Below are positions 1 to 13,581 of a stretch of DNA of 13,581 bases, in pieces (the first letter of the stretch is position 1; every line of letters starts with the position of its first letter). A program made the translations under genes and the position numbers. The notes below the pieces were generated by a model that saw only the letters and a program-made list of their open reading frames with translations, did no database searches and was not told the DNA's origin. The stretch is from the NCBI GenBank assembly GCA_003345595.1, contig PRDI01000105.1, forward strand, positions 1 to 13,581, written 5' to 3'. Source of the stretch: Candidatus Thorarchaeota archaeon (GTDB lineage Archaea; Asgardarchaeota; Thorarchaeia; Thorarchaeales; Thorarchaeaceae).

Positions 1-1
1 C

Positions 2-376
2 ACTGGGGCAGGGAATGAATCCATGTTCGAGAGAATGAATGGCACTGACGTTCAGCGCATTCAGTTCATGAATGACATGTCAGATGTTGCGCAGGGTTTC
101 TTCAGCTGGGTGGATCAGGCAGTGATAACTCTGCCCGGAGGAGCAACTGAGGCTGTCAACGTGACAGCTTCCTACATGCCCATGGGAATGGGTGTGGCTG
201 TATACTTGGCCTACCCCAACTTCGACAATGGAACACTGACCCACGATCCATCGATAGGCCTGTATGAGAGCGGAAACCCCATCACTACGACCCCCGATAA
301 CATGCCAATTGTCCTCGGGATTGGCTTGGTGGCAGCAGTTGCCATTGCAGTAGTCGTTCTCCGCAGAAAACAGTAA
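2..376 (+). CDS. C-terminal part of a secreted/surface protein with C-terminal membrane anchor (5'-truncated by window edge)
   Basis: The frame is open from position 2 (TGAGNES-M...), so the ATG at 23 is probably internal. It ends in HDPSIG, a Thr/Pro linker (PITTTP), a hydrophobic helix (IVLGIGLVAAVAIAVVVL) and a basic stop-transfer tail (RRKQ). N-X-S/T sequons: NES, NGT, NVT, NGT. Confidence 0.8.
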   Translation, partial: TGAGNESMFERMNGTDVQRIQFMNDMSDVAQGFFSWVDQAVITLPGGATEAVNVTASYMPMGMGVAVYLAYPNFDNGTLTHDPSIGLYESGNPITTTPDNMPIVLGIGLVAAVAIAVVVLRRKQ

Positions 377-383
377 CCCATAA

Positions 384-418
384 GGTGGTGGACTGTGTCC
401 ACTACCGTTTTTCTTTTT
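384..418 (+). terminator. Stem-loop plus T-tract terminator
   Basis: GGTGGTGGAC (384-393) pairs with GTCCACTACC (397-406) as a 10-bp stem with one G-U pair and a TGT loop. It is followed by TTTTTCTTTTT (408-418) and starts 8 nt after the stop codon. Confidence 0.75.
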
Positions 419-496
419 AACAGAACAATCCTGTACACGCAACAAGACGGATGACACGCTCCAGAGTCAATAAACGCGAAACGATAGTGATTGACG

Positions 497-1492
497 ATGA
501 AAGGTTTCCTGCTAGCTCTGACAATCATATCACTAGCAGTCCCGATTGCTCTGCCTCTTCAGGTTCAGGCCGCCGATACTGATAGTGTCCTTTTTGATCC
601 CGTGGACATTCGAGCAATTATGCACGAGAATACGAGCACTTCATTGATGGTCGATGCGCGGGCGAACAATGTAGGCTCGTTGTCCATGTCCTCACTCAGT
701 ATCGGCATTGAATCACTAGAGCTGGAGGTCATTGCTGTTCGGGTTGACAATGAAACAGCCAATGGAGAAACAATCCTGAGAGATGACTACACCGAGATTA
801 CAGTCACACTTCCCAAGGTTCTGGAAGCGAATTCATCTGTCTGGCTTCATCTAGCACTTGTAGCTAGCGATCTCCAATCACCTCTTGTCATTGCCCAAGA
901 TGCCAGCCATGTTAGTGGCGATTTCTTATTCTATGTCAGACCGCTTTCGGTATTTGCCAATTTTACGTTCACTGCAGTTCTTCCACCATATGCATCTCTA
1001 TCTAACGATTATGTAGTGACCCTCTTTCCTCACTCCGATTCCAATTTCACTGATGGCCAATCACTCATATTTGTTTGGGACGTGCCGCTGCTCCAGCCCG
1101 GTCAAGAACGAGTGTTCATAATCAAGTATCAACTTCCAAACATCTCCACAGTTCAAGCACAATCATCATTTCTTGGAAGTCTTCTCTACGGAGCATTGGG
1201 TGTCATAGCTGGGCTTGCTTTAGCATTCGGTGGCCCGAGAGTGATTGAACGGTTGAAACGCCTTGGAGCAGTGAAATACGTAGGAGTCACAGCTGAAGAA
1301 GAGGAGGTTCTGGCGACCATCCGGGAGAAAGGCGGCTCATGTACACAGAAAGAGCTTTACAGTCTTTTTGACATGTCACAGTCGAAGATGAGCCTGATTC
1401 TTACAAATCTTGAGCAGCGGGGTTTGATTCGAAGACTAAAGGAAGGACGGGAGAATGTGGTCCACCTGATGGAGCCCAAGCAAGCTGGCTAA
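497..1492 (+). CDS. Membrane-anchored winged-helix transcriptional regulator (COG2512-like: signal peptide, extracellular beta-rich domain, TM helix, C-terminal MarR-like wHTH)
   Basis: Signal-peptide-like MKGFLLALTIISLAVPIALPLQVQA (ATG 497 preferred over TTG 491). TM segment FLGSLLYGALGVIAGLALAFGG. C-terminal TAEEEEVLATIREKGGSCTQKELYSLFDMSQSKMSLILTNLEQRGLIRRLKEGRENVVHL is typical of this archaeal family. Confidence 0.85.
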   Translation: MKGFLLALTIISLAVPIALPLQVQAADTDSVLFDPVDIRAIMHENTSTSLMVDARANNVGSLSMSSLSIGIESLELEVIAVRVDNETANGETILRDDYTEITVTLPKVLEANSSVWLHLALVASDLQSPLVIAQDASHVSGDFLFYVRPLSVFANFTFTAVLPPYASLSNDYVVTLFPHSDSNFTDGQSLIFVWDVPLLQPGQERVFIIKYQLPNISTVQAQSSFLGSLLYGALGVIAGLALAFGGPRVIERLKRLGAVKYVGVTAEEEEVLATIREKGGSCTQKELYSLFDMSQSKMSLILTNLEQRGLIRRLKEGRENVVHLMEPKQAG

Positions 1493-1502
1493 GAGTCCAT
1501 CT

Positions 1503-2105
1503 TCACTCTTCGCCTTCAGGACCAAGTTTCTTTCCCGGGGGCAAGTCATCCATCAGCAGTCTTTCAGACTCAGCTTCTCTTACAGCCGCCGTGGCCTTAT
1601 CACCGCCAATGTTCTCCAAAGCGCCGGCTGCAGTCTGCCTGACGAACATCGAATCATCATGCAGGACACCTATCAGTGGCTCGACGGCTGCAGTGTCCCT
1701 CCTTTCACCGAGCTGGGCAGCAGCGAGAATGCGCACCATGTATCTGGAATCTCTGAGGCAGCTGATGAGTTGTGTTGTTGCACGTGGGTCGTCTATCCCC
1801 CCAAGACGTTCAATGGCACCAAGCGAAACCTGTTCGTCATCGCTCCGCACTTCGGCTGCAAGGTCATCGATGATGGAACCCTGATCTGCCAGACTTCGAC
1901 TGCCCCTTTCGGACATTAGCACTCTGTGTGAAGTGCCCTCCGTAGCTCTCTGTTTCTTGACGGGAGCCGGGGCAGTTCGGGGAGCCTTGGTCTTCTCCGC
2001 TTTTGCCACAGTCTTGGCGGGTCCTTTCCTTGTGCTTACCGCGGGAGCCCTGCTCTTTGTTTCGCCTTTCTTGTCACCCTTCTTGGCGCTTGACGCCTTT
2101 GGCAA
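1503..2105 (-). CDS. HEAT (PBS-lyase-like) repeat protein with Lys/Ala-rich disordered N-terminus
   Basis: Three HEAT-like repeats (AIERLGGIDDPRATTQLISCL; VRILAAAQLGERRDTAAVEPLIGVL; VRQTAAGALENIG). The start is placed at TTG 2105 (MPKASSAKK), with GGAG/GTGAG upstream. The ORF-track extension to 2204 looks non-coding. Confidence 0.8.
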   Translation of the reverse strand: MPKASSAKKGDKKGETKSRAPAVSTRKGPAKTVAKAEKTKAPRTAPAPVKKQRATEGTSHRVLMSERGSRSLADQGSIIDDLAAEVRSDDEQVSLGAIERLGGIDDPRATTQLISCLRDSRYMVRILAAAQLGERRDTAAVEPLIGVLHDDSMFVRQTAAGALENIGGDKATAAVREAESERLLMDDLPPGKKLGPEGEE

Positions 2106-2235
2106 CTCACTATCTCCAAGCCTTGATGAGGGCTCAATGTCGGTCCACAGTTGCTCTAATAAACAGTCTGAGTCCTCTTTGTCATAGCAAAAACGCCTTA
2201 ACACACTTCAGGATTTCGCGTGTCTGGTGACCTCC

Positions 2236-2655
2236 TTGCATGAGTTCTCTGCTGCCTGCTCCATCGTGGAGACTGTTGTAGAGGCAGCAAGGAGTCATGA
2301 TGTCAAGAGGGTCAAGGCTGTGAACATTGAGGTCGGTGAGTTCACATTCCTTCTTCCTGAACAGCTGCGTTTCAATTTTGAGATTGCAAGTCAGAAGACG
2401 ATCGCCGAGGGCGCAGAGCTGAACATTAGGATGGTGAAGGGGAGGCTGATCTGTCGTGACTGTGGGCACGAGGGCGAGGCACAAAGCCCTGATGAGGCTC
2501 TGGGTCCTGCCGCCATGTTTGCACCGATGAAGTGCACCAAGTGCGGTAGCAGCGCAACTACAATCACTGGTGGCAAGGAGTTTCTAATAGCAGATATCGA
2601 GGCAGAAGTTGCGGCTCCCGTCGAGAAACAAAGGCCTAAACCAAAACCGCATTGA
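2236..2655 (+). CDS. hypA: Hydrogenase maturation nickel metallochaperone HypA
   Basis: The N-terminal MHE Ni-binding motif requires a start at TTG 2236, which has GGTGA at 2226-2230. Also present: VGEFTFLLPEQLRFNFE, two CxxC Zn motifs (CRDC, CTKC) and GGKEF. Confidence 0.95.
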   Translation: MHEFSAACSIVETVVEAARSHDVKRVKAVNIEVGEFTFLLPEQLRFNFEIASQKTIAEGAELNIRMVKGRLICRDCGHEGEAQSPDEALGPAAMFAPMKCTKCGSSATTITGGKEFLIADIEAEVAAPVEKQRPKPKPH

Positions 2656-3016
2656 GGATGCCGTCCTGCCCCGGGCGACTAGTGACCTTGGCACGACCTT
2701 TGGCTGTCTTGATGATCGTCCCTCGAGTTATGACCTTGCGCCGCTGGTAGTCTGTGTTTGACGGGTTCTTTTCAACATCCTGAATCTCGGCCCGGAATGT
2801 CTGGTTCTTTTTAGGGTCAGTGATGTTTACCATCTTCGCGCGCAATATTGGTCTCTTCTTGTTGTGAACGCCTTTGCTGTCGATTGTGCGCCTCTTGGGT
2901 TCACCGAGGAGTGTTTCTGTGGGGGAACGACCCATCTCCCACTTCCTCTTGCTCCTGAATTGCTTGATCTTTGCGCCAGTTGGCTTTCGACCAGACTTGC
3001 GATGCCATACGCCCAT
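2636..3016 (-). CDS. rps8e: 30S ribosomal protein S8e (eS8)
   Basis: RKPTGAK, KRKWEMGR, VITRGTII and AKVTSRPGQDGILNAVLV are hallmark eS8 motifs. 126 aa, with a GAGGT RBS upstream. Confidence 0.98.
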   Translation of the reverse strand: MGVWHRKSGRKPTGAKIKQFRSKRKWEMGRSPTETLLGEPKRRTIDSKGVHNKKRPILRAKMVNITDPKKNQTFRAEIQDVEKNPSNTDYQRRKVITRGTIIKTAKGRAKVTSRPGQDGILNAVLV

Positions 3017-3163
3017 ACTGACTACCTCTTGGCTTAGTCACTGACGCTCACTGTGAAGCAGTTTTAAGTCTTGCTCAGTGGCGGCGTTCAGGTCGTACTG
3101 AACATCTCCTTCAAATACGACGAACAGGCACATGACTATTGCAGTCTGGATGGAGGCCGCCAC

Positions 3164-4177
3164 ATGCCAAAGATAGAATCCGCCCACGGTGCTGGTGGGA
3201 GAGTGATGCAGAGTCTGCTGAAGGAAGTGATTATCCCCTCCTTTGGGCTTAGGAAGATTGGGAGCATAGGTCTGGATGAGATGGATGACGGAGCGACACT
3301 GCAAGCGAATGGTGCAGGCCTCATAATAACCGCGGATGCGCACACAGTTCAACCGCTCTTCTTTCCAGGTGGCAACATCGGCACCCTTGCTGCCTGTGGT
3401 ACAATCAATGACTTAGCTGTCATGGGCGCTAGGCCCATCGCAATGACAAACACGATAGTGATAGAGGAGGGCTTCGAGATTGAGACACTCCATGAGATTC
3501 TGAAGTCATTGAACGCCGTCATCGAACCGCTTGAGGTCGCGATGATTGCTGGCGACACGAAGGTCATGCCGAGAGGAACTCTTGATGGCCTTGTGATGTC
3601 CACATCTGGCGTCGGCACAGTATATCTGGACTCCCCGGTTCCAGACAGCGGCGTCAAGGCCGACGATGACATAATTGTCACTGGACCGATTGGGGATCAC
3701 GGGACTGCATTGCTGGCTCACAGAGAGGGACTCAAGTTTGAAACCGATTTGGTAAGTGACGTGGCTCCTCTCTGGGAACCGATACGTGACTGTCTTGACG
3801 TCGGGGGCGTACACGCAATGAAAGACCCGACTCGCGGTGGAACTGCAGTTGCCCTGAATGAGTTCGCATCCAAGTCGAGAGTCGAGGTTGAGTTGGATGA
3901 GGGCCGCGTGCCTGTCCGTCCTGCCGTTCGCTCCCTGTGTGACATTCTGGGTCTGGAACCTCTCCACATAAGCTGCGAAGGTCGAGCAGTTATGGCAACA
4001 GACCCCTCAGTGACCAGTGACATATTACAGGTTCTATCAGAACACAAGACGACCCGGGATGCATGTGTTATTGGCAAGGCTCACAGGGGTGTTGGAAGAG
4101 TGCTACTGAAGACGGCGATAGGGGGTAGAAAGGTCCTACAAGTGCCCTACGGAGAACCGGTGCCCAGAGTCTGCTAA
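3164..4177 (+). CDS. hypE: Hydrogenase carbamoyl dehydratase HypE
   Basis: AHGAGG, DDGA, FFPGGNIGTLAACGTINDLAVMGA, GDTKV, MKDPTRGG and the terminal PRVC with the catalytic C-terminal Cys. Start at ATG 3164 with GGAGG at 3152-3156. The upstream 31 codons in the ORF track are an extension. Confidence 0.97.
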   Translation: MPKIESAHGAGGRVMQSLLKEVIIPSFGLRKIGSIGLDEMDDGATLQANGAGLIITADAHTVQPLFFPGGNIGTLAACGTINDLAVMGARPIAMTNTIVIEEGFEIETLHEILKSLNAVIEPLEVAMIAGDTKVMPRGTLDGLVMSTSGVGTVYLDSPVPDSGVKADDDIIVTGPIGDHGTALLAHREGLKFETDLVSDVAPLWEPIRDCLDVGGVHAMKDPTRGGTAVALNEFASKSRVEVELDEGRVPVRPAVRSLCDILGLEPLHISCEGRAVMATDPSVTSDILQVLSEHKTTRDACVIGKAHRGVGRVLLKTAIGGRKVLQVPYGEPVPRVC

Positions 4178-4292
4178 ATCAGATTTGAATCAGCTTCGGA
4201 CGATGTGGTTGCCGAATACTCTGAGGGCTGGGAACAATGACCCAAAACAAAGCGAGAGTTTGCCAGTCACATCTAGATCGTTTCTTCGTCTT

Positions 4293-4850
4293 CTAGGGTG
4301 TTTCCGGGTTCTCTTCTCCCTCTTGGTCCCCGGAAAGAATACGCTTCAGCTGGAATTTCAGTTGTGCCTTCAGTTTGACCTTGTCAGAATCAAGACCAAA
4401 GTAGTCGGAGAAGAGCTGAGTTGTCGTGAGCATCTTGCTCCGCCCTTCTGGTACAGCATCTATGAACTTCTTCTCCTCAAGTTCCTTCACATGGTCATAG
4501 ACATGAGTACCCCTCTGGACAACGAGGTCCGACTGTAAGATGGGCTGTTTGAGAGCAATGAAGACCAAGGTCTGAAGAGTACCAAACGAAAGGAGTCCAC
4601 CAGGTATGAGTTTTCCTACCCGAGTGGTCAGTTCGGGTTTCAGCTGCAACACATACCTCTCCCTCGGCAAGTCCACAACCTCCAATGCCCCACCTCGTTG
4701 GTGATACTCGAAATTCAGGTCATCCAGAAGCTTCTTCGCGGTAGACTCTGCCTTTCCAATGATGTCTGCTAGCTCCTGCAGTGTCATTGGTCTGCCCGCG
4801 ACATAAAGCGCCGCTTCAAGTGTCACCAGGTCCTCATTCACACATATCAC
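4293..4850 (-). CDS. scpB: SMC-Scp complex subunit ScpB (kite)
   Basis: LEAALYVAGRPMTLQEL, LQTLVFIALKQPILQSDLVVQRG, HVKELEEKKFI and TTQLFSDYFGL. GTG 4850 overlaps the scpA stop (GTGA). An alternative start is GTG 4841. Confidence 0.95.
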   Translation of the reverse strand: MICVNEDLVTLEAALYVAGRPMTLQELADIIGKAESTAKKLLDDLNFEYHQRGGALEVVDLPRERYVLQLKPELTTRVGKLIPGGLLSFGTLQTLVFIALKQPILQSDLVVQRGTHVYDHVKELEEKKFIDAVPEGRSKMLTTTQLFSDYFGLDSDKVKLKAQLKFQLKRILSGDQEGEENPETP

Positions 4851-5566
4851 CTAGACCTTACACGCGGCTTAATACCCTCTGAGGGCTTCTCCGTTTCTTC
4901 CGGCGGAGGTACTAGCTTGACCCATATTATGTCCTTCTTGTCCATCCAGAGGTCAATGAATGCTCTTGCATAGAGATGCAGCAGTGAGAAGAAGATGCGA
5001 ACTATCTCTCTTCGCGTGTTATTGACCAGCAGATCAGTGAATCTGACGACTTCACCCATTTTGACGATCTTGCTGATGTCTGCATATACGTCGGCGATGG
5101 TTTCCTCGATGTTCACCCGGGACGTATCCATGCTGAAAGACAGGGGTCCTGCCTCTGATTTTCCGTGCCGCGACTGAGGAATTGGCCGTTCTCTTATGCC
5201 CTTGCTCAGAACTCGGTCCATTGCCATGAGCAGTTCCTGCAGGGTTACTCTTCTGTTTGTGAGCCTGAATGGCGGAAGTATCTGGGGGATAGCGAGTTCC
5301 TCTTCCTCCTCACCTACTTCAGGAGGAATCAGGCCAAGTTCCAAGAGGTCTCTAGTCTTCTTCATGAAGATGACTGATGCAGAATAGAGCGCGTTTCCTG
5401 AAACTCGGAAGTCAATGTCCCCCATCCTTCTCATTTCTTGCAGGAAGCCTGCAACCAGCTTCCCGACATCCACGTTCCAAGGTTCGATGTTGTCCAGCTG
5501 AAGAACATCAGTGAGGAGGATGTAGGGTGGCGACGCCCAGAAGGGCGTATCATCACTCGTGCTCAC
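4847..5566 (-). CDS. scpA: Segregation and condensation protein A (kleisin)
   Basis: IEPWNVDV, DFRVSGNALYSAS, RRVTLQELL and C-terminal wHTH IVRIFFSLLHL. It lies between smc and scpB with GTGA overlaps. Confidence 0.93.
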   Translation of the reverse strand: MSTSDDTPFWASPPYILLTDVLQLDNIEPWNVDVGKLVAGFLQEMRRMGDIDFRVSGNALYSASVIFMKKTRDLLELGLIPPEVGEEEEELAIPQILPPFRLTNRRVTLQELLMAMDRVLSKGIRERPIPQSRHGKSEAGPLSFSMDTSRVNIEETIADVYADISKIVKMGEVVRFTDLLVNNTRREIVRIFFSLLHLYARAFIDLWMDKKDIIWVKLVPPPEETEKPSEGIKPRVRSR

Positions 5567-8500
5567 GCTGACTCAGCCACCTCCTGAAGGTCCACTGAAA
5601 CAATCCTGGATATGCCATCTTGGTTTGACACGCCAATGAGCATGTCCGCTTTTCGCACGGTGGTGTCCCTGAGCGACACCACTATGAACTGGGAGTTCTT
5701 GGACATTTCTGATATCAACAGTGCGACGTTGTGCGCATTGACATCGTCCAGGGCCGCGTCTATCTCATCAAAGACATAGAAGCTTGCGGGGTTGTGCATT
5801 TGAATGGCGAAGATCAATGCCAGTCCCGTGAGTGTCTTCTCTCCGCCGCTCATCGCATCAAGAGAAACCAGTTCTTTGCCTGCAGGTTTAGATCTGACAG
5901 TTATGCCCCCCATCAGCGGGTGTTCAGCATTCTCTAGCATCAGGTTTGCCTCGCCGTCTGGCGAGAGCTTGGCAAACACCTTCGAGAAGTTGTCTGCAAT
6001 ATCGTTGTATACTTGGAGGAATTTCTGGGTCTTTTCTTTCTCCAGCTCCTCCATGAACGACAGGATCTCCTTGTGTTCCTTCTCAAGCTGCGTCTTCTTC
6101 TCGACAATCTCGTCGTATCTGTCTTTTTCAGTATCATAATCCGTGAGCGACTTCAGGTTGACTGGACCCATTGCCTCAAGTTCTCTCTCAATCTCTTTGA
6201 TCTTCTCTTCAAGGTCCTCGATCGCTTTGGCAGTCAGCTCACGTTGCCCCGCTCTCTTCTCGAGCTCTGTTTCCACATCGCTCATCGTGGCTAGCTGGGC
6301 AGTGAGTCCGACCAAGTCGGTTTCAAGGCGCGAGCGTTCTACTTGGAGCCGGTAGACGGCTTTCTCGTTTCCAGTTTGTGACTCCTTGATTTCTTCCTGC
6401 TTCAGCCTGAGGTTTCTGATGGTTTCTTTCAGTTTCAGCTGCCGTACTCGCTTATCTTTGACTGCGGTGTCGATCTGTTCTCTCTCTGACTTCAGTTTGA
6501 GGAAATCGCTCTCTTTTGCCCTAAGGTCTGCCTCAATAGATGTAGCATCCTCTTCCAGACTCGGCAATACTGCCTCCAGTGACGCGATTCGGAGTTCCAG
6601 TTCTACTGACTTGGGCAAGTATCTCTCTTGAATCGAAACTCTCAGTGCGGAGGTTTCAGTCCGAATCCTCTCGTGGTTTCGCTTGTGCTGTTCTAGGACT
6701 TCCTTCAGATCTCTCAAGTCCTGATTCAACTTGCCCGTGCCTGACTTCGCCAGTATTTCGTTGCACTGGTCTCTTTGTTCTCTGACTCTTTCTCTCTGAG
6801 CAGTGAGCTCCTCATCTCGAGTCCTGAGCTCGGATATCTGCTTCTCCAGTTCCTCAATTGTGACTCTTGCCTTGTCAGTCTTCTCTTTCAGTTTCTCTGC
6901 TTTTTGTTCCCTGTCCCTGAGTTTCTCCTCTAGGCCCTTCAGTTCCAACCCGTCCCTGTAATTCCGCTTAGAAATGTCTTCAATCTCGCGGTCAAGTGCC
7001 CTTTTCCTGCTCAGGAGCTCTTCCTGCTGTTCTTTCAACTCAGACAGGATGTCCTCAAGGCCCTTGAGGCGTGAAATCAGGTCTGGGCTTGTGTCCTCCT
7101 CTTGAAGTGAGAGCCCCGTTGAATCTCTATGGAAGTGTCCTCCAGTGATGAGTCCTGAGCGTTCTACCAAGTCGCCCTCCAACGAAACCGCTCTACAGTT
7201 GTCGAAACCCACGGCCTTTGCGGTATCGAAGTCCTTGGTCACAAGTGTGTCCGAAAACACGAACTCAAAGGCCGGACGCATCTTCGGGTTAAAGGTCACA
7301 AGGTCCAGTGCATAGCCTATCACGCCCTCTCTCTGTGGCTTCCGACTCGGTCTTCGTGTCTTTATCCTGTTGAGTGGGATGAACGAGGCCCGTCCTACTC
7401 GCTCTTTCTTAAGCACCTCAATACATCGGGTGGCCACATCCTCATTCTCTACGACTATGTGGGACAGTCTGTTACCCGCCGCTACCTGCATGGCTGTGGC
7501 ATAGTCCGGGTTTATGACCCCCAGTTCTGCAACTGTGCCGTAGACCCCGTCAATCTCTCCCTTGTCGCGTAGTTCAAGCACTCTGGCCAAGGCTCTCCGG
7601 CGTTTCAAGAACGTCTCTTCGGCCTCTCTCAATGCATCCTGACGAGCCTGCAGCTTAATCAGTTCTTCCTTTGTCGAGGCAACGAGCTTGCTACTCTCAC
7701 TCACCTGCGCGTCCACTGTGGCAAGTTGCCTCTCAGTATCCTCAAGTTCCTGCCGCCTTCCAACTTCGGACTCATGCAGTTTCTGAAGGGCTGTAGTCTT
7801 TGCCGGGACGATGAATCTGAGTTCTAGCAGTTCCTCGTCTGTCTTCTTCGTGGAATCTTCAGCATCACGTAACTCCTCGTACGTGAGCCCCAATTCCTTA
7901 CTATCTGACCTTATGGTAGACCTGATTTCAGTCACACCCTCATCGAGGTGTGCCATCTGTGTGTTGAGGTCCTGAAGCCTTAGAGTGGCTTCATAGTATG
8001 CAGACTGCTCTTTCTCAAGAAGACCCTCGAGTCGTGCAATGTCAGTTGAGCACTCCAGAATCTCCTTGTCAAGACTCTCAAGTTCGAGTTGCTTCTCCTT
8101 GGTGCCATGTTCCGCAGCGGTCATTTGGTCTTTCGTGGAACTCAGCTGTTTCTCAAGCGCGTCCCGTTCTTGTCTGGTTCTGTCATAATCACTCTTTGCA
8201 CGATCGAGCTTGCTCCGAAAGTGTTCAACCTCTGCAGTCATGGTACCATACTGCTCAGAAACTCTTGAGGCGTCACCGCCGGTTATCAGGTCGATCTCCT
8301 GTTCTATTTCTCCGATTTCGGACTCGGTCTTGGCCATGTCTGCTTCGACCTTGGTCAGCTGCTTGGCAAACCTCTCAGCATCTGCGGCTCGCTCTGCAAG
8401 TGTTTCGTCTATCGTAGTTGTCCGGTTCTTGGACTTGATGACTGTCCAAGTCAAGCTCTCAATTCTGATCTGCTGTATCTGATCACGTAGACCGGTGTAA

Positions 8501-9153
8501 CGGAGGGCGTCTTTCCTCTCCGCTTCCAGACGCTCCAGCTGATGACGACGTTCTTGAAGCTGTGTTTCGACCTTGCCTAGGTTGGTTTCACTCTCTGCAA
8601 GCTTCTTGAGTGCTTTCTCTTTCTGCTCGTCATAGGCTGATATGCCTGCAATCTCCTCAATGAGCTTCCGTCGTTCAATTGGGCTGACTTTGACCATCTG
8701 GGCAATCTCGCCTTGGAGTACAAGATTGTAGCCGTTTGGGTCGACACCTATGCCGCCGAGGATGTCTATGACCGCCGCACGGGTGACCATCTTGCCGTTT
8801 ATCCTGCAAACCGACTTACCAGATTCGTCCAGCTCTCTCTCAACAACGACTCTATCGGCGTCAATCTGCAGTTTTCTGTCCCTGTTATTGAAGCAGAGCT
8901 CCACAATAGCTGACTTGGCCTTTGGAGGCATGTCTGGTTTAGGTGGAGTATAGAGCAGCTCCGAGAAGACATTAGCACGCAACGTCTTGGCACTCAGCTG
9001 CCCGAGCACGAAAAGAATCGCATCAATCACGTTGGACTTGCCTGACCCGTTCGGCCCGACGATGCATGTGAAGCCAGGGCTCAGGTTAATCGTGACGGTG
9101 TCCCGGCCAAATGACTTGAAGCCTTTGCATACTAGCTTCTCGATGTGAACCAA
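5563..9153 (-). CDS. smc: Chromosome segregation protein SMC
   Basis: GFKSFG, Walker A GPNGSGKSN, Q-loop VLQG, long coiled coils, hinge (GVYGTVAEL...GRASFIPL...LEGDLVERSGLITGG), signature MSGGEK and Walker B/D-loop YVFDEIDAALD. 1196 aa, TTG start. Confidence 0.99.
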   Translation of the reverse strand: MVHIEKLVCKGFKSFGRDTVTINLSPGFTCIVGPNGSGKSNVIDAILFVLGQLSAKTLRANVFSELLYTPPKPDMPPKAKSAIVELCFNNRDRKLQIDADRVVVERELDESGKSVCRINGKMVTRAAVIDILGGIGVDPNGYNLVLQGEIAQMVKVSPIERRKLIEEIAGISAYDEQKEKALKKLAESETNLGKVETQLQERRHQLERLEAERKDALRYTGLRDQIQQIRIESLTWTVIKSKNRTTTIDETLAERAADAERFAKQLTKVEADMAKTESEIGEIEQEIDLITGGDASRVSEQYGTMTAEVEHFRSKLDRAKSDYDRTRQERDALEKQLSSTKDQMTAAEHGTKEKQLELESLDKEILECSTDIARLEGLLEKEQSAYYEATLRLQDLNTQMAHLDEGVTEIRSTIRSDSKELGLTYEELRDAEDSTKKTDEELLELRFIVPAKTTALQKLHESEVGRRQELEDTERQLATVDAQVSESSKLVASTKEELIKLQARQDALREAEETFLKRRRALARVLELRDKGEIDGVYGTVAELGVINPDYATAMQVAAGNRLSHIVVENEDVATRCIEVLKKERVGRASFIPLNRIKTRRPSRKPQREGVIGYALDLVTFNPKMRPAFEFVFSDTLVTKDFDTAKAVGFDNCRAVSLEGDLVERSGLITGGHFHRDSTGLSLQEEDTSPDLISRLKGLEDILSELKEQQEELLSRKRALDREIEDISKRNYRDGLELKGLEEKLRDREQKAEKLKEKTDKARVTIEELEKQISELRTRDEELTAQRERVREQRDQCNEILAKSGTGKLNQDLRDLKEVLEQHKRNHERIRTETSALRVSIQERYLPKSVELELRIASLEAVLPSLEEDATSIEADLRAKESDFLKLKSEREQIDTAVKDKRVRQLKLKETIRNLRLKQEEIKESQTGNEKAVYRLQVERSRLETDLVGLTAQLATMSDVETELEKRAGQRELTAKAIEDLEEKIKEIERELEAMGPVNLKSLTDYDTEKDRYDEIVEKKTQLEKEHKEILSFMEELEKEKTQKFLQVYNDIADNFSKVFAKLSPDGEANLMLENAEHPLMGGITVRSKPAGKELVSLDAMSGGEKTLTGLALIFAIQMHNPASFYVFDEIDAALDDVNAHNVALLISEMSKNSQFIVVSLRDTTVRKADMLIGVSNQDGISRIVSVDLQEVAESA

Positions 9154-9347
9154 GGCACCATCCCTTCCGACTTCCTAGATGGCCATTTCTGGGCAGAGGC
9201 GTGTCTGACTATTATCTGGGTGATACGTGACACTAAATACGGTTGGTATGACGGTGGTAATACCACGAATGATACCCACGTATTCCAATCTTAGCGAATC
9301 CGCTTACATAAAGCTACAAAAAGATAGCTCTGGGACCTACCTTCCCA

Positions 9348-9716
9348 TCAGGCCTTGACCATCGACATGAGCGCCCGTTTGAGTGCGATTCTGAGAAGGC
9401 CCATTGACTCTTTCGCGCCTTCTCCAGCGATTGCAGCAAGGACTAGTTGTACGTCACCCAAGACTATGACATATCCCTTGTCCGATGCGATACTGATTTC
9501 CTTCAGACTGCCTTTGTCAACCGCGCTGACTAGTTGCGACGAGTTGGCAGATATCTTGGCGATCAGCGATGCAACGTCCGTGTGCTTGATGCCTGCCGTA
9601 ACGGTGTGACCGAACAACACCTTGCCCTTGTCATCACAGACCACGATGCCCTGTATGTCAGCATTCGCCGCCATGGTCTGCGCGACGACTGACTCTATCT
9701 TGGCCTTGTCCACCAT
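9348..9716 (-). CDS. Roadblock/LC7 domain protein
   Basis: Helix followed by IQGIVVCDDKGKVL, a helix, then GSLKEISIASDKGYVIV-LVLAAIA and a final helix (MGLLRIALKRA), which fits the Roadblock alpha-beta pattern. Start at ATG 9716 with GGAGG upstream; 122 aa. Confidence 0.85.
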   Translation of the reverse strand: MVDKAKIESVVAQTMAANADIQGIVVCDDKGKVLFGHTVTAGIKHTDVASLIAKISANSSQLVSAVDKGSLKEISIASDKGYVIVLGDVQLVLAAIAGEGAKESMGLLRIALKRALMSMVKA

Positions 9717-9771
9717 CGTGACAGTCCTCCGAAGAGTTTCGCCTAATATCATCAACTAGAGGGCTCTGAGC

Positions 9772-9786
9772 TGTTTATATCTTCTG
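9772..9786 (-). promoter_or_regulatory. Candidate archaeal TATA box for the minus-strand Roadblock gene
   Basis: The minus strand reads CAGAAGATATAAACA, with TATAAA (9779-9774) about 60 nt upstream of ATG 9716 in an otherwise GC-balanced region. Confidence 0.35.
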
Positions 9787-10033
9787 TGCCGACATCTTGA
9801 GATGGCAGAGTTCTCCTCTTACTCCAATTCTCATGATGCTGCGTGACGTTCATTGTGAGTTCGAGTGATCTGGACGCAGGAGTCTCCTAATCCGGGGTCG
9901 GCACTTGGGCCTATGTCCTACACGTCTGTTCGGTTTGTGATTCTTCGATATACAGAAGCGGAAACATCAGCAATTGACTTAAAGCACAATGGGCCGCCCC
10001 TGATTGGCAACAGTCTTCTGAGGAATAGTATCG

Positions 10034-11665
10034 ATGCCCATGCTTAGGACCAGTTCAGAGGCCTTTCCAGCCTCAAGAGACATGATTAGCGAGATCCCGT
10101 ATGTCCTGCGTGTTGAGTTCAGAGACCTAGCACGCGACGTAACAAAAATCACAGGAATACCAATCACATGTCACAAGTGTAACGGTTTTCTGATGAGCGC
10201 AGATCAGATTGTTGAGGACAGGAAGGTCGGGAAGCACTTCGTCTGCCCCTTCTGTGGCACTTTGAACATGATTGCAGGTGAAGTAGTCCTTGCTGGCTCT
10301 GACACGGATTTCATCATCAAGCCAGGTCCAGACAAGACCGAAACCACAACCACTGCAGCCACCACTGCGGGCGGTAGGTCATTTCTGGCCGTGATTGATG
10401 TGTCCGGCTCAATGGCTGGAGCCAATCTGGCAGCAGTGAAGAGGAGCCTGACCACCTCTGTTGAAAGCCTAGCTGCGAACTCTCCCGACACGTTGTTCGG
10501 ATTGATAGAGTTTGAGAGTTCTGTTCTGTTTCGCAATATGGAAACTGGTGAGGCGGTGCAGCTTCCAAGAGAGTCCTTTGCGAGCTTCGAAACCATCACT
10601 GAAGCCGCACGAAGACTCATGGACCGAATCAAGCTCATCAAGGTGGGAGGAAATGCTGGACCTCTGAAGCGTCACATCAATGCCCTGAGAGAGCAGGGCG
10701 GGACAGCTCTTGGTCCTGCGGTAGCCATGGCGTGTGTCATTGCCAAGCACCGAGGTGTAGGCAGGGTGGTCCTTCTCACAGACGGACTTGCGAACGAAGG
10801 CATTGGTGCTCTTGAGGGCTATCAGGTCACTCCTGGAAACAAGTACTATGAAGACCTAGGGCGTTTGTTCAAAGACAATGGCACAGCGATTGATGTAGTT
10901 GGGATCGCCACTGGTGCAGGGATGGAGCTGAAAACATTGGGCCTGATGCCTGAAGCCACAGGTGGCCAGATGTATTATGTCACTCCAAATGAGCTGGACA
11001 AGAGCCTGTCGGAGCTAGCGGGAGCATCGTTGCTTGGCCGCGATGTCCAAGTTCGGCTTCTTACTCCATCAGGCGTGAAAGTCAAGGACGCTTCAGGCGT
11101 ATCAAGAGCCGTTGTAGACGAACTTAGGACTAAGAGCGAAAGCAGGATAGGGGTTGTGGGTGAGAATCACGAGCTCTATTTCGAGGTGGAGCCAGAGAGC
11201 ACGCTCAAGGCTAAGGAAGTCCCAATTCAGGTGCAGGTCGAATACACTGACCAAGACGGATCCAGACGAATGCGCACTTTCACTAAGAAGCTGCAGGTCA
11301 CTTCAGATGAGAAAGAGTTGGTCAAGACAATGGACCCGACAATCGGCGCCACTTTCGTTGTCCAGAAGGCTGGAGAGGAGGCCTTAGGTGGTGGTCGTGC
11401 CGCTGGCATGAGTCGGATTGCCAGTTACAGGGCTGCAATGAAGAAGAAGGCCAAGGCCGCGCCAGCGCCGGTACAGGCGAAGCTGCAGAGAGCCGATGAT
11501 GCGCTTGCCACAGAAGAGGAGAACATGGAACGTCAGGAAGCAGCAGTGGGCAGAGCACGAGCTGGAGCGCCATCAGCTGCAGCAGATCAAGCAGTAACTG
11601 AGAACTTGGCCCAAATGAGGAAAGCATCCAAGGCTCTATTTGGCGATGAAGAGGATGAGAAGTAG
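10034..11665 (+). CDS. Sec23/Sec24-like zinc finger + vWA (trunk) + beta-sandwich protein
   Basis: PITCHKCNGFL...FVCPFCGTLN (C46, C49, C71, C74) fits the Sec23/24 Zn-finger pattern PxxCxxC...CxFCxxxN. The vWA domain has IDVSGSM, GGTALGPA, VVLLTDGLANEG and EATGGQMY. It is followed by beta-rich VQVRLL...IQVQVEYTDQDGSRRMRTFT, which resembles the Sec23/24 beta-sandwich, and an Ala-rich helical tail. Confidence 0.85.
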   Translation: MPMLRTSSEAFPASRDMISEIPYVLRVEFRDLARDVTKITGIPITCHKCNGFLMSADQIVEDRKVGKHFVCPFCGTLNMIAGEVVLAGSDTDFIIKPGPDKTETTTTAATTAGGRSFLAVIDVSGSMAGANLAAVKRSLTTSVESLAANSPDTLFGLIEFESSVLFRNMETGEAVQLPRESFASFETITEAARRLMDRIKLIKVGGNAGPLKRHINALREQGGTALGPAVAMACVIAKHRGVGRVVLLTDGLANEGIGALEGYQVTPGNKYYEDLGRLFKDNGTAIDVVGIATGAGMELKTLGLMPEATGGQMYYVTPNELDKSLSELAGASLLGRDVQVRLLTPSGVKVKDASGVSRAVVDELRTKSESRIGVVGENHELYFEVEPESTLKAKEVPIQVQVEYTDQDGSRRMRTFTKKLQVTSDEKELVKTMDPTIGATFVVQKAGEEALGGGRAAGMSRIASYRAAMKKKAKAAPAPVQAKLQRADDALATEEENMERQEAAVGRARAGAPSAAADQAVTENLAQMRKASKALFGDEEDEK

Positions 11666-11892
11666 GTTCTCGATGAGTCCTCTCCTCCTTGTGGCTGCAT
11701 GGTTCGCCGCGAAACGAGTGTGTCTAGTCACGCATTGCCTGCGGCCCCTGTGCTAGTCAGAACATTGGCGCGGTCGGCATCTCAGAATGCGCAATTGGCC
11801 TGTTGAGAAGACCCTGTTGCCACAAGTCTCAAATACCCAAGCGTGGCGTAGAAATGCTAAATGCACAATTGACAGCAGCGGGGATTCTACAG

Positions 11893-12192
11893 TTGGTTAG
11901 CCAGGACAAACTCCGATCGATTCTCTCCAAAATCAAGGCGCAAGGGGGAGTCCGAGGAGTTGTTGTCACAAACATGGAAGGCTTGCCACTTAGCAGTGAT
12001 CTAGACCCCGAAACGACTGAAGCTGTCGCCGCCATAATAACCTCCCTCGTGGGCAAGGCGCTCGATGCAGTGAGAGAACTCCGAGAGGGGTCTCTGTCAT
12101 TCCTGACTCTCGATACATCTAAGGGTCAGATTAACATAGCACCCGACGTGAAAGAGGGGTTGATATTAGTAGTCCTGAAGAAACCGAGCTGA
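11893..12192 (+). CDS. Roadblock/LC7 protein, dynein light chain roadblock (DYNLRB)-like
   Basis: 99 aa from TTG 11893 (MVSQDKLRSIL), with GGVRGVVVTNMEGLPLSS, KALDAVREL, LSFLTL and IAPD. The ORF-track extension to 11803 is probably not translated. Confidence 0.88.
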   Translation: MVSQDKLRSILSKIKAQGGVRGVVVTNMEGLPLSSDLDPETTEAVAAIITSLVGKALDAVRELREGSLSFLTLDTSKGQINIAPDVKEGLILVVLKKPS

Positions 12193-12207
12193 AAGGAGAA
12201 CGATGAC

Positions 12208-12675
12208 ATGAGCGATCCAAAGGTCTTCGACAAGATCCTCACTGAGATCATCCGCCAAGACAAGGGCATAAAGAAGGTAATCCTTGTGGACAAGACTGGG
12301 CTGACAATTGCAAACGTGAGCAAGCTCAGCTACTTTCCGATTGACACAGATTCAATAGGTGCGATTGCGAGCGCAGTGTTTTGCGCCAGCGAGGAACAGG
12401 GGAAGAACCTACAGATCGGGGAGCTTGAGATTGTCACCTCCGAGTTCTCAGAAGGTAAGATATTCGCCTCTGCATGCGGCAAGGGTGTTCTTTGTGTTGT
12501 TTCCGAGTCTGAGGTGAACATTGGCCTTATCCGGCTCATCATGAAGAAGCAGGGTGTTCAGCTCGCAGAAGAGTTGGAGAAGTTCTTGGCAGTCGAACCC
12601 ACAGCACCATCAAAGGGCAAGGAGCTGGATGAAGAGGATCTGAAGTCTGCTCTGGCAGAGCTCGAAAAGGTGTGA
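12208..12675 (+). CDS. Roadblock/LC7 (MglB-like) protein with acidic C-terminal helix
   Basis: GIKKVILVDKTGLTI, IGAIASAVFCAS, VNIGLIRL, then a linker and ELDEEDLKSALAELEKV. GGAG RBS at 12195-12198. Confidence 0.9.
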   Translation: MSDPKVFDKILTEIIRQDKGIKKVILVDKTGLTIANVSKLSYFPIDTDSIGAIASAVFCASEEQGKNLQIGELEIVTSEFSEGKIFASACGKGVLCVVSESEVNIGLIRLIMKKQGVQLAEELEKFLAVEPTAPSKGKELDEEDLKSALAELEKV

Positions 12676-12732
12676 GCCCTCGCTGGTGGCCGGAACTGAC
12701 CTGTCAAGTCGGCTCGTGTCTACTTGACGGAC

Positions 12733-12746
12733 AAAGGCTTTTATGA
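12733..12746 (+). promoter_or_regulatory. Candidate BRE/TATA promoter upstream of the GTPase gene
   Basis: AAAGGC followed by TTTTATGA in the 247-bp gap between the Roadblock and GTPase genes. Confidence 0.35.
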
Positions 12747-12922
12747 GAGTACAATGTTACCACAGCCAGTTACCCGATTTGGGATGCCCGGCTCGGGAAC
12801 TGATACTTGGCTCTCAGAGCATGAGAATTGCCCCGTGGCACGTACTCTCACACTGGTGGTGTTTCTGCGCCACCATGGCGGGGACGGTCCACAAGAACAG
12901 CATAGCACCGAGGTGTTGAAAC

Positions 12923-13486
12923 GTGCGCAAGGATGACAAGGGCAGAATTCATCTCAAGCTGGTGTTCTATGGTCCGAGCCTAGGCGGCAAGACGACTGCG
13001 CTTCGTTGGCTGTACGGAAAGGTCGAGGGTCTCCAGAAGGGAGAGTTTACGGCAATCGAAGATGAAACAAACCGCACCCTGTTCTTTGACTACGTACCGA
13101 TGAGCGCAGGAGGTCGTGTCCTCTTTGACGTGTTCACTGTTGCAGGACAGAAGCGACACAGACACCAGAGGAAGGTTGTGCTCCAAGGGACTGACGGGAT
13201 ACTGTTCGTTGCGGACTCATCTCCCGACCAGCGAGAGGAGAATGTTGAGAGCTTCGAGGAATTGAAGCTCTTCTTAGGTGATGTACTGGGCCGTGATATT
13301 CCCATTGTAGTCATGCTGAACAAGCGTGACCTGCCCAACAGGATGTCTCGTGATGAGATGCTTGATCTACTGGGACTCGGTGGTAACGTACCGATTTACG
13401 AAACCATCGCCGTCCAGGGCGTAGGAGTTAAAAGAGCCTTCCAGGCCATAGCACGGGAAGTCATCCTTAAGAGAATGTACAAGTGA
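12923..13486 (+). CDS. MglA-family small GTPase (Ras superfamily)
   Basis: G1 YGPSLGGKTT, G2 RTLFFD, MglA-type G3 TVAGQ (no DxxG), DGILFVADS, G4 NKRD and G5 ETIAVQG. GTG start with GAGGTG at 12910-12915. Confidence 0.95.
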   Translation: MRKDDKGRIHLKLVFYGPSLGGKTTALRWLYGKVEGLQKGEFTAIEDETNRTLFFDYVPMSAGGRVLFDVFTVAGQKRHRHQRKVVLQGTDGILFVADSSPDQREENVESFEELKLFLGDVLGRDIPIVVMLNKRDLPNRMSRDEMLDLLGLGGNVPIYETIAVQGVGVKRAFQAIAREVILKRMYK

Positions 13487-13505
13487 ATGCACCTAGGTGA
13501 GTCTG

Positions 13506-13581
13506 ATGAGCGAGTCGCGGGGCGATACACTCGAGGGAGTCCTGAACGAGCTGCAAGGCAGTATTCCCGAGATTGAGGCCT
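13506..13581 (+). CDS. Probable Roadblock/LC7 protein, N-terminus only (3'-truncated by window edge)
   Basis: AGGTGAG RBS at 13495-13501 and ATG 13506, giving MSESRGDTLEGVLNELQGSIPEIEA. This matches the first helix and entry into the first strand of Roadblock domains. Only 25 codons are visible. Confidence 0.65.
   Translation, partial: MSESRGDTLEGVLNELQGSIPEIEA

Follow-up and report, generated by a model that had tools for sequence, protein, structure and literature searches.

An MglA-type GTPase and four Roadblock paralogues in a conserved Asgard gene cluster that houses a Sec23/24-like gene in Thorarchaeaceae

Contig PRDI01000105.1 from assembly GCA_003345595.1 of a Candidatus Thorarchaeota archaeon was analyzed over positions 1 to 13,581 of its forward strand, a stretch of 13,581 nucleotides that is termed the window in the following. 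In its right third, the gene for a Sec23/24-like protein (Sec23L) with a Zn finger and a von Willebrand factor A (vWA) domain is embedded among genes for four Roadblock proteins (RoblA to RoblD) and for an MglA-type small GTPase. A first-pass annotation, made from the sequence without database searches, had described a Roadblock gene on the minus strand followed on the plus strand by a Zn-finger/vWA gene, two Roadblock genes, a GTPase gene and a truncated Roadblock gene, and all six genes were found there:

9348..9716, minus strand: RoblA, 122 aa; the open frame extends to 9755
10034..11665, plus strand: Sec23/24-like protein (Sec23L), 543 aa; identified by Pfam, AlphaFold2 (AF2) and Foldseek
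11854..12192, plus strand: RoblB, 112 aa; short DYNLRB/LC7-like Roadblock
12208..12675, plus strand: RoblC, 155 aa; MglB-type Roadblock with C-terminal extension
12923..13486, plus strand: MglA-type small GTPase, 187 aa
13497..13581, plus strand: RoblD, first 28 codons; full length 126 aa

As far as its sequence tells, the GTPase is a member of the MglA family and not of the Arf or Sar1 families. Among PDB entries it matches MglA with an E value of 1e-38 (136 bits), as compared with 1.2e-12 for the best Arf. Its TVAGQ aligns with TVPGQ of Myxococcus xanthus MglA, i.e. the G3 motif is of the T-x-x-G-Q form in which Thr stands where other Ras-like GTPases have Asp, and R51 (NRTLFFD) aligns with R53 (DRTLFFD), the intrinsic switch-I arginine finger of the M. 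xanthus protein. Across 24 aligned Asgard orthologues, conservation of the P-loop, NKRD, R51, T72 and Q76 is complete or almost complete, with R51, T72 and Q76 unchanged throughout. The protein features neither the amphipathic N-terminus of Sar1/Arf nor a C-terminal Roadblock domain. Within the window's own family, Thorarchaeaceae (f1; the other family of the same order is f2, and further Asgard families are numbered likewise), MglA sequences are 91-100% identical, compared with 60-67% for SMC and 54-93% for Sec23L (loci L001-L040, with the near-identical L001 and L004 set aside), and in other classes MglA identity still amounts to 57-67%. Such constraint is unusually strong for a small GTPase. 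The gene is flanked by that for the MglB-like RoblC, which ends 247 nt upstream, and by that for RoblD, which starts 10 nt downstream.

All four Roadblock proteins belong to the Roadblock/LC7 (MglB) superfamily, as is evident from Pfam for RoblA, RoblB and RoblC, from solved relatives for RoblD and additionally from the fold for RoblA. For the latter, the ATG at 9716 is the likely true start, giving 122 aa as in the orthologues, which measure 117-129 aa and occur in at least seven families. The Pfam match of RoblA to Robl_LC7 (PF03259) is borderline (23.1 bits, cut-off 23), and its AF2 model, with a predicted local distance difference test score (pLDDT) of 84, has the MK-D1 Roadblock2 and Roadblock3 structures and MglB as best Foldseek matches, with a query TM-score (TMq) of 0.77-0.86. 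RoblB, which starts with the ATG at 11854 and not at 11893, scores 57.2 bits with Robl_LC7 and 28.8 bits with LAMTOR5; it matches a short solved Asgard Roadblock (PDB 7f8f, E 1e-23) as well as human and fly dynein roadblock (DYNLRB; E 1e-13 to 5e-12). RoblC reaches 42.2 bits with Robl_LC7; its match to M. xanthus MglB (E 8e-7) spans residues 13-149 and takes in the C-terminal extension. The labels DYNLRB-like for RoblB and MglB-like for RoblC, proposed in the first-pass annotation, are thus borne out. The Roadblock that it had recorded as truncated is incomplete solely through the contig end: the 28 residues of RoblD in the window match the beginning of L001:11458-11838 with 100% identity, and the full 126-aa protein is encoded there and on contig C7 of the same assembly (G000:C7:984-1364), which overlaps the window end. 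RoblD is related to a Roadblock from Thorarchaeote SMTZ1-45 (PDB 7f8m, E 2.5e-24) and to MK-D1 Roadblock3 (9jue, E 1.7e-17). The presence of several different Roadblocks in one GTPase system, together with weak Pfam matches of RoblB and RoblC to LAMTOR5 and MAPKK1_Int (MP1), is reminiscent of Ragulator-Rag (LAMTOR1-5 and RagA/C), where a LAMTOR1 wrap keeps together two Roadblock heterodimers that bind the Roadblock domains of the Rag GTPases. The Asgard set differs from the latter in that no LAMTOR1-like gene was recognized in the window and in that the GTPase is of the MglA type and not of the Rag type with its C-terminal Roadblock domain.

Sec23L exhibits the domain order of Sec23 and Sec24, namely Zn finger, vWA/trunk, beta-sandwich and helical domain. 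The Pfam matches to Sec23_trunk (36.7 bits) and Sec23_BS (33.7 bits) pass, while zf-Sec23_Sec24 stays under its cut-off with 19.8 bits. In 27 Asgard homologues, the Zn-finger cysteines C46, C49, C71 and C74 are invariant and so is the complete MIDAS (metal ion-dependent adhesion site) motif D122-x-S124-x-S126, T224 and D250. The AF2 model (pLDDT 88, predicted TM-score 0.89), with helices at 435-528, retrieves Sec24 and Sec23 in Foldseek with E values of 1e-29 to 1e-25 (TMq 0.62-0.73 over 514-652 columns) and ArnB of Sulfolobus (8s05_A) with 3.6e-15. A profile of the 27 homologues matches Sec24 (5e-18) and Sec23 (2e-6) in the PDB; in this alignment yeast Sec24 retains D-x-S-x-S and Thr, not the final Asp of the MIDAS. 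At the C-terminus, many of the 27 proteins bear a conserved K-x-L-F and, after it, acidic residues; one may guess that this tail serves as a ligand of the MIDAS site. Homologues of 26-41% identity are present in ten other Asgard families. When compared with Sec23/Sec24 and Sar1 of COPII (PDB 1m2o, 1m2v), Sec23L is considerably shorter (543 versus ~770-930 aa), its MIDAS is complete and the GTPase encoded beside it is MglA-type and not Sar1/Arf. Neither Pfam nor the model reveals a gelsolin domain, and the helical domain is the last one before the chain stops at residue 543. In Sec23, the arginine finger and a portion of the Sar1 interface reside in the C-terminal gelsolin-like domain. A Sec23-type arginine finger is thus lacking in Sec23L. 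Asgard Sec23-like proteins have been published before, all of them reported without gelsolin domain, and tests of such proteins with an Asgard Arf gave weak and nucleotide-independent results (PMC11914678).

As far as contigs reach, all 40 related Thorarchaeota loci feature a scpB-scpA-smc-RoblA set transcribed divergently from a Sec23L-RoblB-RoblC-(spacer)-MglA-RoblD set; the arrangement cannot be put down to chance. We regarded Sec23L and MglA as linked when they reside on one contig less than 6 kb apart; counts are from genome-wide searches and refer to genomes with both genes listed. On this basis, the two genes are linked in 61 of 76 f1 genomes, the remainder being mostly contig breaks. 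The entire 17-kb block is equally syntenic in f1, with the unrelated smc-scpAB genes on its upstream side as well as the uppS-like and acetyl-CoA synthetase (acd) genes on its downstream side, and the Sec23L adjacency therefore carries little functional weight in this family. Outside f1 the picture is different. Across the phylum (400 genomes), 342 genomes contain an MglA-type GTPase (E <= 1e-35) and 147 contain Sec23L; linkage occurs in none of the 28 non-f1 genomes with both, where they are situated on different contigs or, in closed genome G117, 860 kb apart. We examined 20 Sec23L loci lacking the Thorarchaeota arrangement, of which 19 belong to other families and one to G315 of f1; 18 of the 20 contain no Roadblock or MglA gene within ~8 kb. 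These observations leave without support the earlier proposal that Sec23L belongs to the module as effector or scaffold. One part of the observation that was to refute that proposal, a vWA gene unlinked from the Roadblock and GTPase genes in related genomes, is largely what the neighborhood survey returned.

The cluster itself does not depend on Sec23L. RoblA divergent from RoblB-RoblC-MglA-RoblD, with no Sec23L in between, is present in f2, f6, f14, f16, f30 and f33 and in G315 of f1; f4 and f15 have the cluster without both RoblA and Sec23L, and f7, f9 and f11 have part of it. The Sec23L-free order recurs in at least nine Asgard families, often adjoining smc-scpA-scpB, so that the idea of a module made up of a multi-Roadblock set and an MglA-type GTPase proves to be real and the module conserved. 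Families f4, f6, f9, f11, f15 and f33 possess the cluster or part of it and yield no Sec23L matches whatsoever. In f13, f21, f22 and f29 the MglA gene stands alone, and the cluster is thus widespread, not universal. For f21, f22 and f29 there is no Roadblock gene within 5 kb of the best MglA homologue (L117, L118, L119, L121), in agreement with the published remark that GTPase genes of MK-D1 rarely share operons with Roadblock genes (PMC10933270).

In a maximum-likelihood tree of Sec23-like proteins, those from f1 are monophyletic (100/99) and sister to those from f2 (96/94), and the relocated copy of G315 falls within f1, on a long branch. This topology indicates vertical inheritance of Sec23L, with only its place having changed. 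In the ancestral cluster, RoblA would have been directly divergent from RoblB, and Sec23L appears to have entered the intergenic region between them in the f1 ancestor and to have left it again in G315. Two further genomes are informative. G392 (96% complete) shows a clean deletion of ~1.6 kb relative to its congener G395, with flanks that are 90-92% identical; it takes the promoter region and all of Sec23L except the last 30-40 codons (L113:6950-7640 compared with L061). All five cluster genes are intact and no further Sec23-like match is found in the G392 genome, which makes it a natural knock-out. G389 (98% complete) contains RoblB-RoblC-MglA-RoblD and no Sec23L match.

Upstream regions of the cluster genes contain the following elements:

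9773..9784, minus strand: TATA-like element of RoblA; the minus strand reads GAAGATATAAAC; same offset in Thorarchaeota loci
9976..9985, plus strand: TATA-like element of Sec23L, GACTTAAAGC, ~49 nt before the ATG; putative promoter
11786-11796, plus strand: RoblB upstream motif, AATGCGCAATT
11820-11837, plus strand: RoblB TATA-like element, CCACAAGTCTCAAATACC, 17-34 nt before the ATG; putative independent promoter
12731..12747, plus strand: TATA-like element before MglA, ACAAAGGCTTTTATGAG; long leader

Sec23L, RoblB and MglA are each preceded by a conserved promoter-like element of their own. A ACTTAAAAC-type motif and TTTTGGAGG are present upstream of Sec23L in most Thorarchaeota loci, both RoblB elements are kept in nearly all loci examined, and a CACAAAGGCTTTTATTAGAC-type motif is conserved upstream of MglA. 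GAGG at 10020-10023 precedes the Sec23L ATG and GAGGTG at 12910 lies ahead of MglA. In G315 (L092), no Sec23L separates the divergent RoblA and RoblB, and the short region between these genes contains the elements of both, which fits an insertion of Sec23L between them together with its own promoter. RoblB and RoblC are separated by 15 nt in the window and by 0-26 nt in nearly all Thorarchaeota loci, the MglA-RoblD gap is 3-19 nt in most of them, and the RoblC-MglA spacer (12676-12922 in the window) varies from 111 to 3767 nt. RNA data consist of one wetland metatranscriptome run in the form of contigs, which show neither transcript ends nor absence of transcription and may include DNA carry-over; they establish no more than that the sequences occur in an RNA library. 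One such contig (11868-12404) spans the RoblB-RoblC junction, others cover parts of Sec23L, and the MglA leader and gene are covered by sequence from a relative (38 mismatches). The contigs do not cover RoblA or the Sec23L-RoblB gap, and this was not used as evidence for separate transcripts.

Taken together, we consider it likely that the locus harbors two separate things, an old Asgard switch consisting of MglA and four Roadblock proteins and a vertically inherited Sec23L that is lodged within the cluster in f1. The cluster, with RoblA divergent from RoblB-RoblC and MglA-RoblD, would encode a GTPase switch composed of one bacterial-type MglA and four Roadblock paralogues. By analogy with Myxococcus and Thermus, MglA may supply its own arginine finger and glutamine, both of which a Roadblock dimer would position for GTP hydrolysis. 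The MglB-like RoblC, with its C-terminal helix, is the most likely core of such a dimer. The remaining Roadblocks probably form homo- or heterodimers that tune or localize the switch in the way MglC does for MglB. Sec23L would have moved between RoblA and RoblB in the f1 ancestor as a transcription unit of its own, and would have stayed there mainly through the synteny of the whole region. Given relocation and region-wide synteny, its position is not evidence for a role as effector or scaffold.

The closest known counterpart of this switch is MglA-MglB(-MglC) of M. xanthus and Thermus thermophilus (PDB 3t12, 6izw, 6h5b, 6hjh), with which the Asgard system shares the TVAGQ-type G3 motif, the switch-I arginine and an adjoining gene for an MglB-like Roadblock with C-terminal extension; the additional Asgard Roadblock paralogues recall MglC. 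It deviates from the bacterial system in the number of Roadblock paralogues, which is four with orthologues of each across families, and in its fixed divergent layout. Moreover, the archaeal host is without known gliding or type-IV-pilus target, RomR/RomX were not seen, and the genes often reside beside smc-scpAB.

Several points weigh against the separation of Sec23L from the switch. The adjacency has been retained over the sampled f1 genera although Sec23L identity to the window protein ranges from 47 to 94%, and selection for co-location would likewise produce a single insertion that is then retained. The promoter-like elements are sequence motifs, with which read-through co-transcription would be compatible. 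A Roadblock-domain gene occurs near Sec23L in two unrelated loci, L079 (f19) and L086 (f21), and a Rab/Ras-like GTPase gene lies 0.8 kb upstream of Sec23L in two loci from one f22 genus (L082, L083). Eukaryotic Sec23 acts as GTPase-activating protein and coat partner of a small GTPase. Finally, cpRAS-VWA proteins (CPRas1) of some eukaryotes (Elias and Novotny, 2008; PMC2430557) carry a putative Zn finger plus vWA/Sec23-24-trunk module in one chain with a Ras-family GTPase domain, and their fusion hints at an ability of such modules to act with small GTPases. The resemblance has its bounds, as this is a fusion and not a neighborhood and the GTPase is a circularly permuted Ras and not MglA.

These points bear on the proposal of the first-pass annotation that all six genes form a single system: MglA would be controlled by a heteromeric Roadblock platform, and MglA-GTP would recruit Sec23L as effector or scaffold in a forerunner of coat/GTPase coupling. 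Besides the eukaryotic fusions, the linkage in 61 of the 76 f1 genomes, the fold match of Sec23L to Sec24/Sec23 (E 1e-29) and the Roadblock or Ras-like genes near Sec23L in a few other loci can be cited in its favor. Such neighbors are sporadic, however, and the genomes concerned are rich in GTPase and Roadblock genes. The linkage arose once, in one family, within a block with synteny throughout; the two genes are unlinked in all 28 other genomes that have both; and the cluster exists in families without Sec23L and survives its deletion in G392. The predicted Sec23L promoter points in the same direction. The proteins do not fit the COPII scheme either, since Sec23L has no gelsolin domain with its arginine finger, the MglA-type GTPase brings its own arginine finger and lacks the Sar1/Arf amphipathic N-terminus, and Asgard Sec23-like proteins interacted with an Asgard Arf weakly and irrespective of nucleotide (PMC11914678). 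We therefore regard the six-gene system as unlikely. Of the original proposal, the conserved Roadblock/MglA module stands, while membership of Sec23L is left unsupported, its position being family-specific, a promoter-like element of its own being present and the gene being lost or moved with the cluster left intact. There is likewise little probability in a variant in which Sec23L was captured by the switch in Thorarchaeaceae only, and in which MglA-GTP or a Roadblock dimer would recruit it via the MIDAS face.

Distinctly improbable is a third reading, according to which Sec23L would be a MIDAS-dependent, possibly phosphorylation-controlled adaptor akin to ArnA-ArnB that is co-regulated with the MglA switch through shared local chromatin or regulators and does not bind it directly. 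ArnA-ArnB of Sulfolobus acidocaldarius is involved in archaellum regulation and is a signaling adaptor of archaea rather than a coat. ArnB (PDB 8s05), described by the depositors as an archaeal orthologue of the Sec23/24 core motif, combines a vWA domain carrying a MIDAS with a beta-sandwich and a helical C-terminal part as does Sec23L, the fold match has an E value of 3.6e-15, and the Zn finger that packs on the vWA protein comes from ArnA (PMC12852372). The MIDAS residues are, as stated, invariant in 27 of 27 Asgard homologues. On the other hand, Sec24 and Sec23 score far better than ArnB in fold and profile searches alike, and Pfam reveals no FHA or kinase domain in any gene of the window, whereas the Sulfolobus system is kinase-driven and has its Zn finger on a separate FHA protein instead of fused as in Sec23L.

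An assembly or binning artefact as the cause of the adjacency has a negligible probability and is refuted for practical purposes by independent assemblies: the window's genome is indeed a fragmented metagenome-assembled genome (129 contigs, 83% complete) in which C7 overlaps the window end by ~1 kb, but 40 genomes that were assembled independently in many studies show this gene order, single-contig G320 and G368 among them, and wetland DNA contigs span the junctions.

Some further features of the window and of related loci deserve mention. The overlap with C7 comprises window positions 12515-13581 (~1.07 kb; G000:C7:1-1067), with letters differing at the extreme end, and causes the MglA gene to be counted twice in the window's genome. 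Pfam-based assignments for the conserved neighbors of RoblA are as follows:

4293-4850, minus strand: scpB
4847-5566, minus strand: scpA
5563-9153, minus strand: smc; conserved neighbor of RoblA

To the left of scpB, Pfam identifies genes for a HypE/AIR-synthase-like protein, ribosomal protein S8e, HypA, a HEAT-repeat protein and a MarR-like regulator. Adjacency of smc-scpA-scpB and RoblA was found in f1, f2, f14 and f16 (4293-9716 in the window; L091, L092, L095, L103, L107, L109) and is more widely conserved than that with the Sec23-like gene. An Rfam search of the whole window returned no families. The frame orf70 (12724-12936) is not considered a gene: it lies inside the MglA leader, is conserved in the nearest relative only and has no credible Pfam match. 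The near-palindromic AATGCGCAA(A/T)T at 11786-11796, ~60 nt upstream of RoblB, is a candidate binding site for a regulator. Insertions are a frequent feature of the RoblC-MglA spacer (L004:10823-11812(-), L014, L030, L031, L011), which contains, depending on the genome, genes for a TetR regulator plus a methyltransferase, a NosD-like beta-helix protein, an arrestin/Vps26-like protein or a Zn-ribbon protein. The arrestin/Vps26-like gene, a member of a eukaryote-like family, is situated in the nearest other genus-level relative.

The surroundings of Sec23L outside Thorarchaeota vary, and a search for a recurrent partner ended with none; neighbors include beta-lactamase-like, PHO4 transporter, Nre, alcohol dehydrogenase and T2SS-F-like genes. 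In f19, a gene for a 168-aa Roadblock-domain protein (L079:7316-7822) is located 210 nt upstream of Sec23L on the same strand, an independent and single case. In the f22 genus, a gene for an Rce1-like CAAX protease accompanies that for the Rab/Ras-like GTPase (Pfam Ras, 152 bits) upstream of Sec23L (L082:5837-7148, L083:5885-7198), a pattern not seen in other genera of f22, and in f13 a Rab/Ras-like GTPase is encoded ~4 kb from Sec23L. Since those genomes hold tens of small-GTPase candidates each, the proximity in f22 and f13 possibly reflects chance.

Coupling of a GTPase to a Sec23/24-like protein in Asgard archaea, if real, would bear on the origin of vesicle coats, and capture of Sec23L, if true, would be a natural, lineage-specific wiring of a small GTPase to a Sec24-like cargo or coat adaptor. 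Such a claim cannot rest on gene position, which is no demonstration of a primitive vesicle coat, as the adjacency amounts to one relocation, confined to a single family, into a cluster that is older. Among the papers that we searched, none describes the Sec23L-MglA adjacency or the five-gene cluster. The adjacency of smc-scpAB raises a possible tie of the MglA-Roadblock switch to chromosome handling or cell polarity. It is in the older cluster that the interest lies: a bacterial-type MglA and four fixed Roadblock paralogues, conserved over several Asgard classes, make up a tractable system for studying how regulation of GTPases by Roadblock dimers arose at a time before Ragulator and dynein light chains existed.

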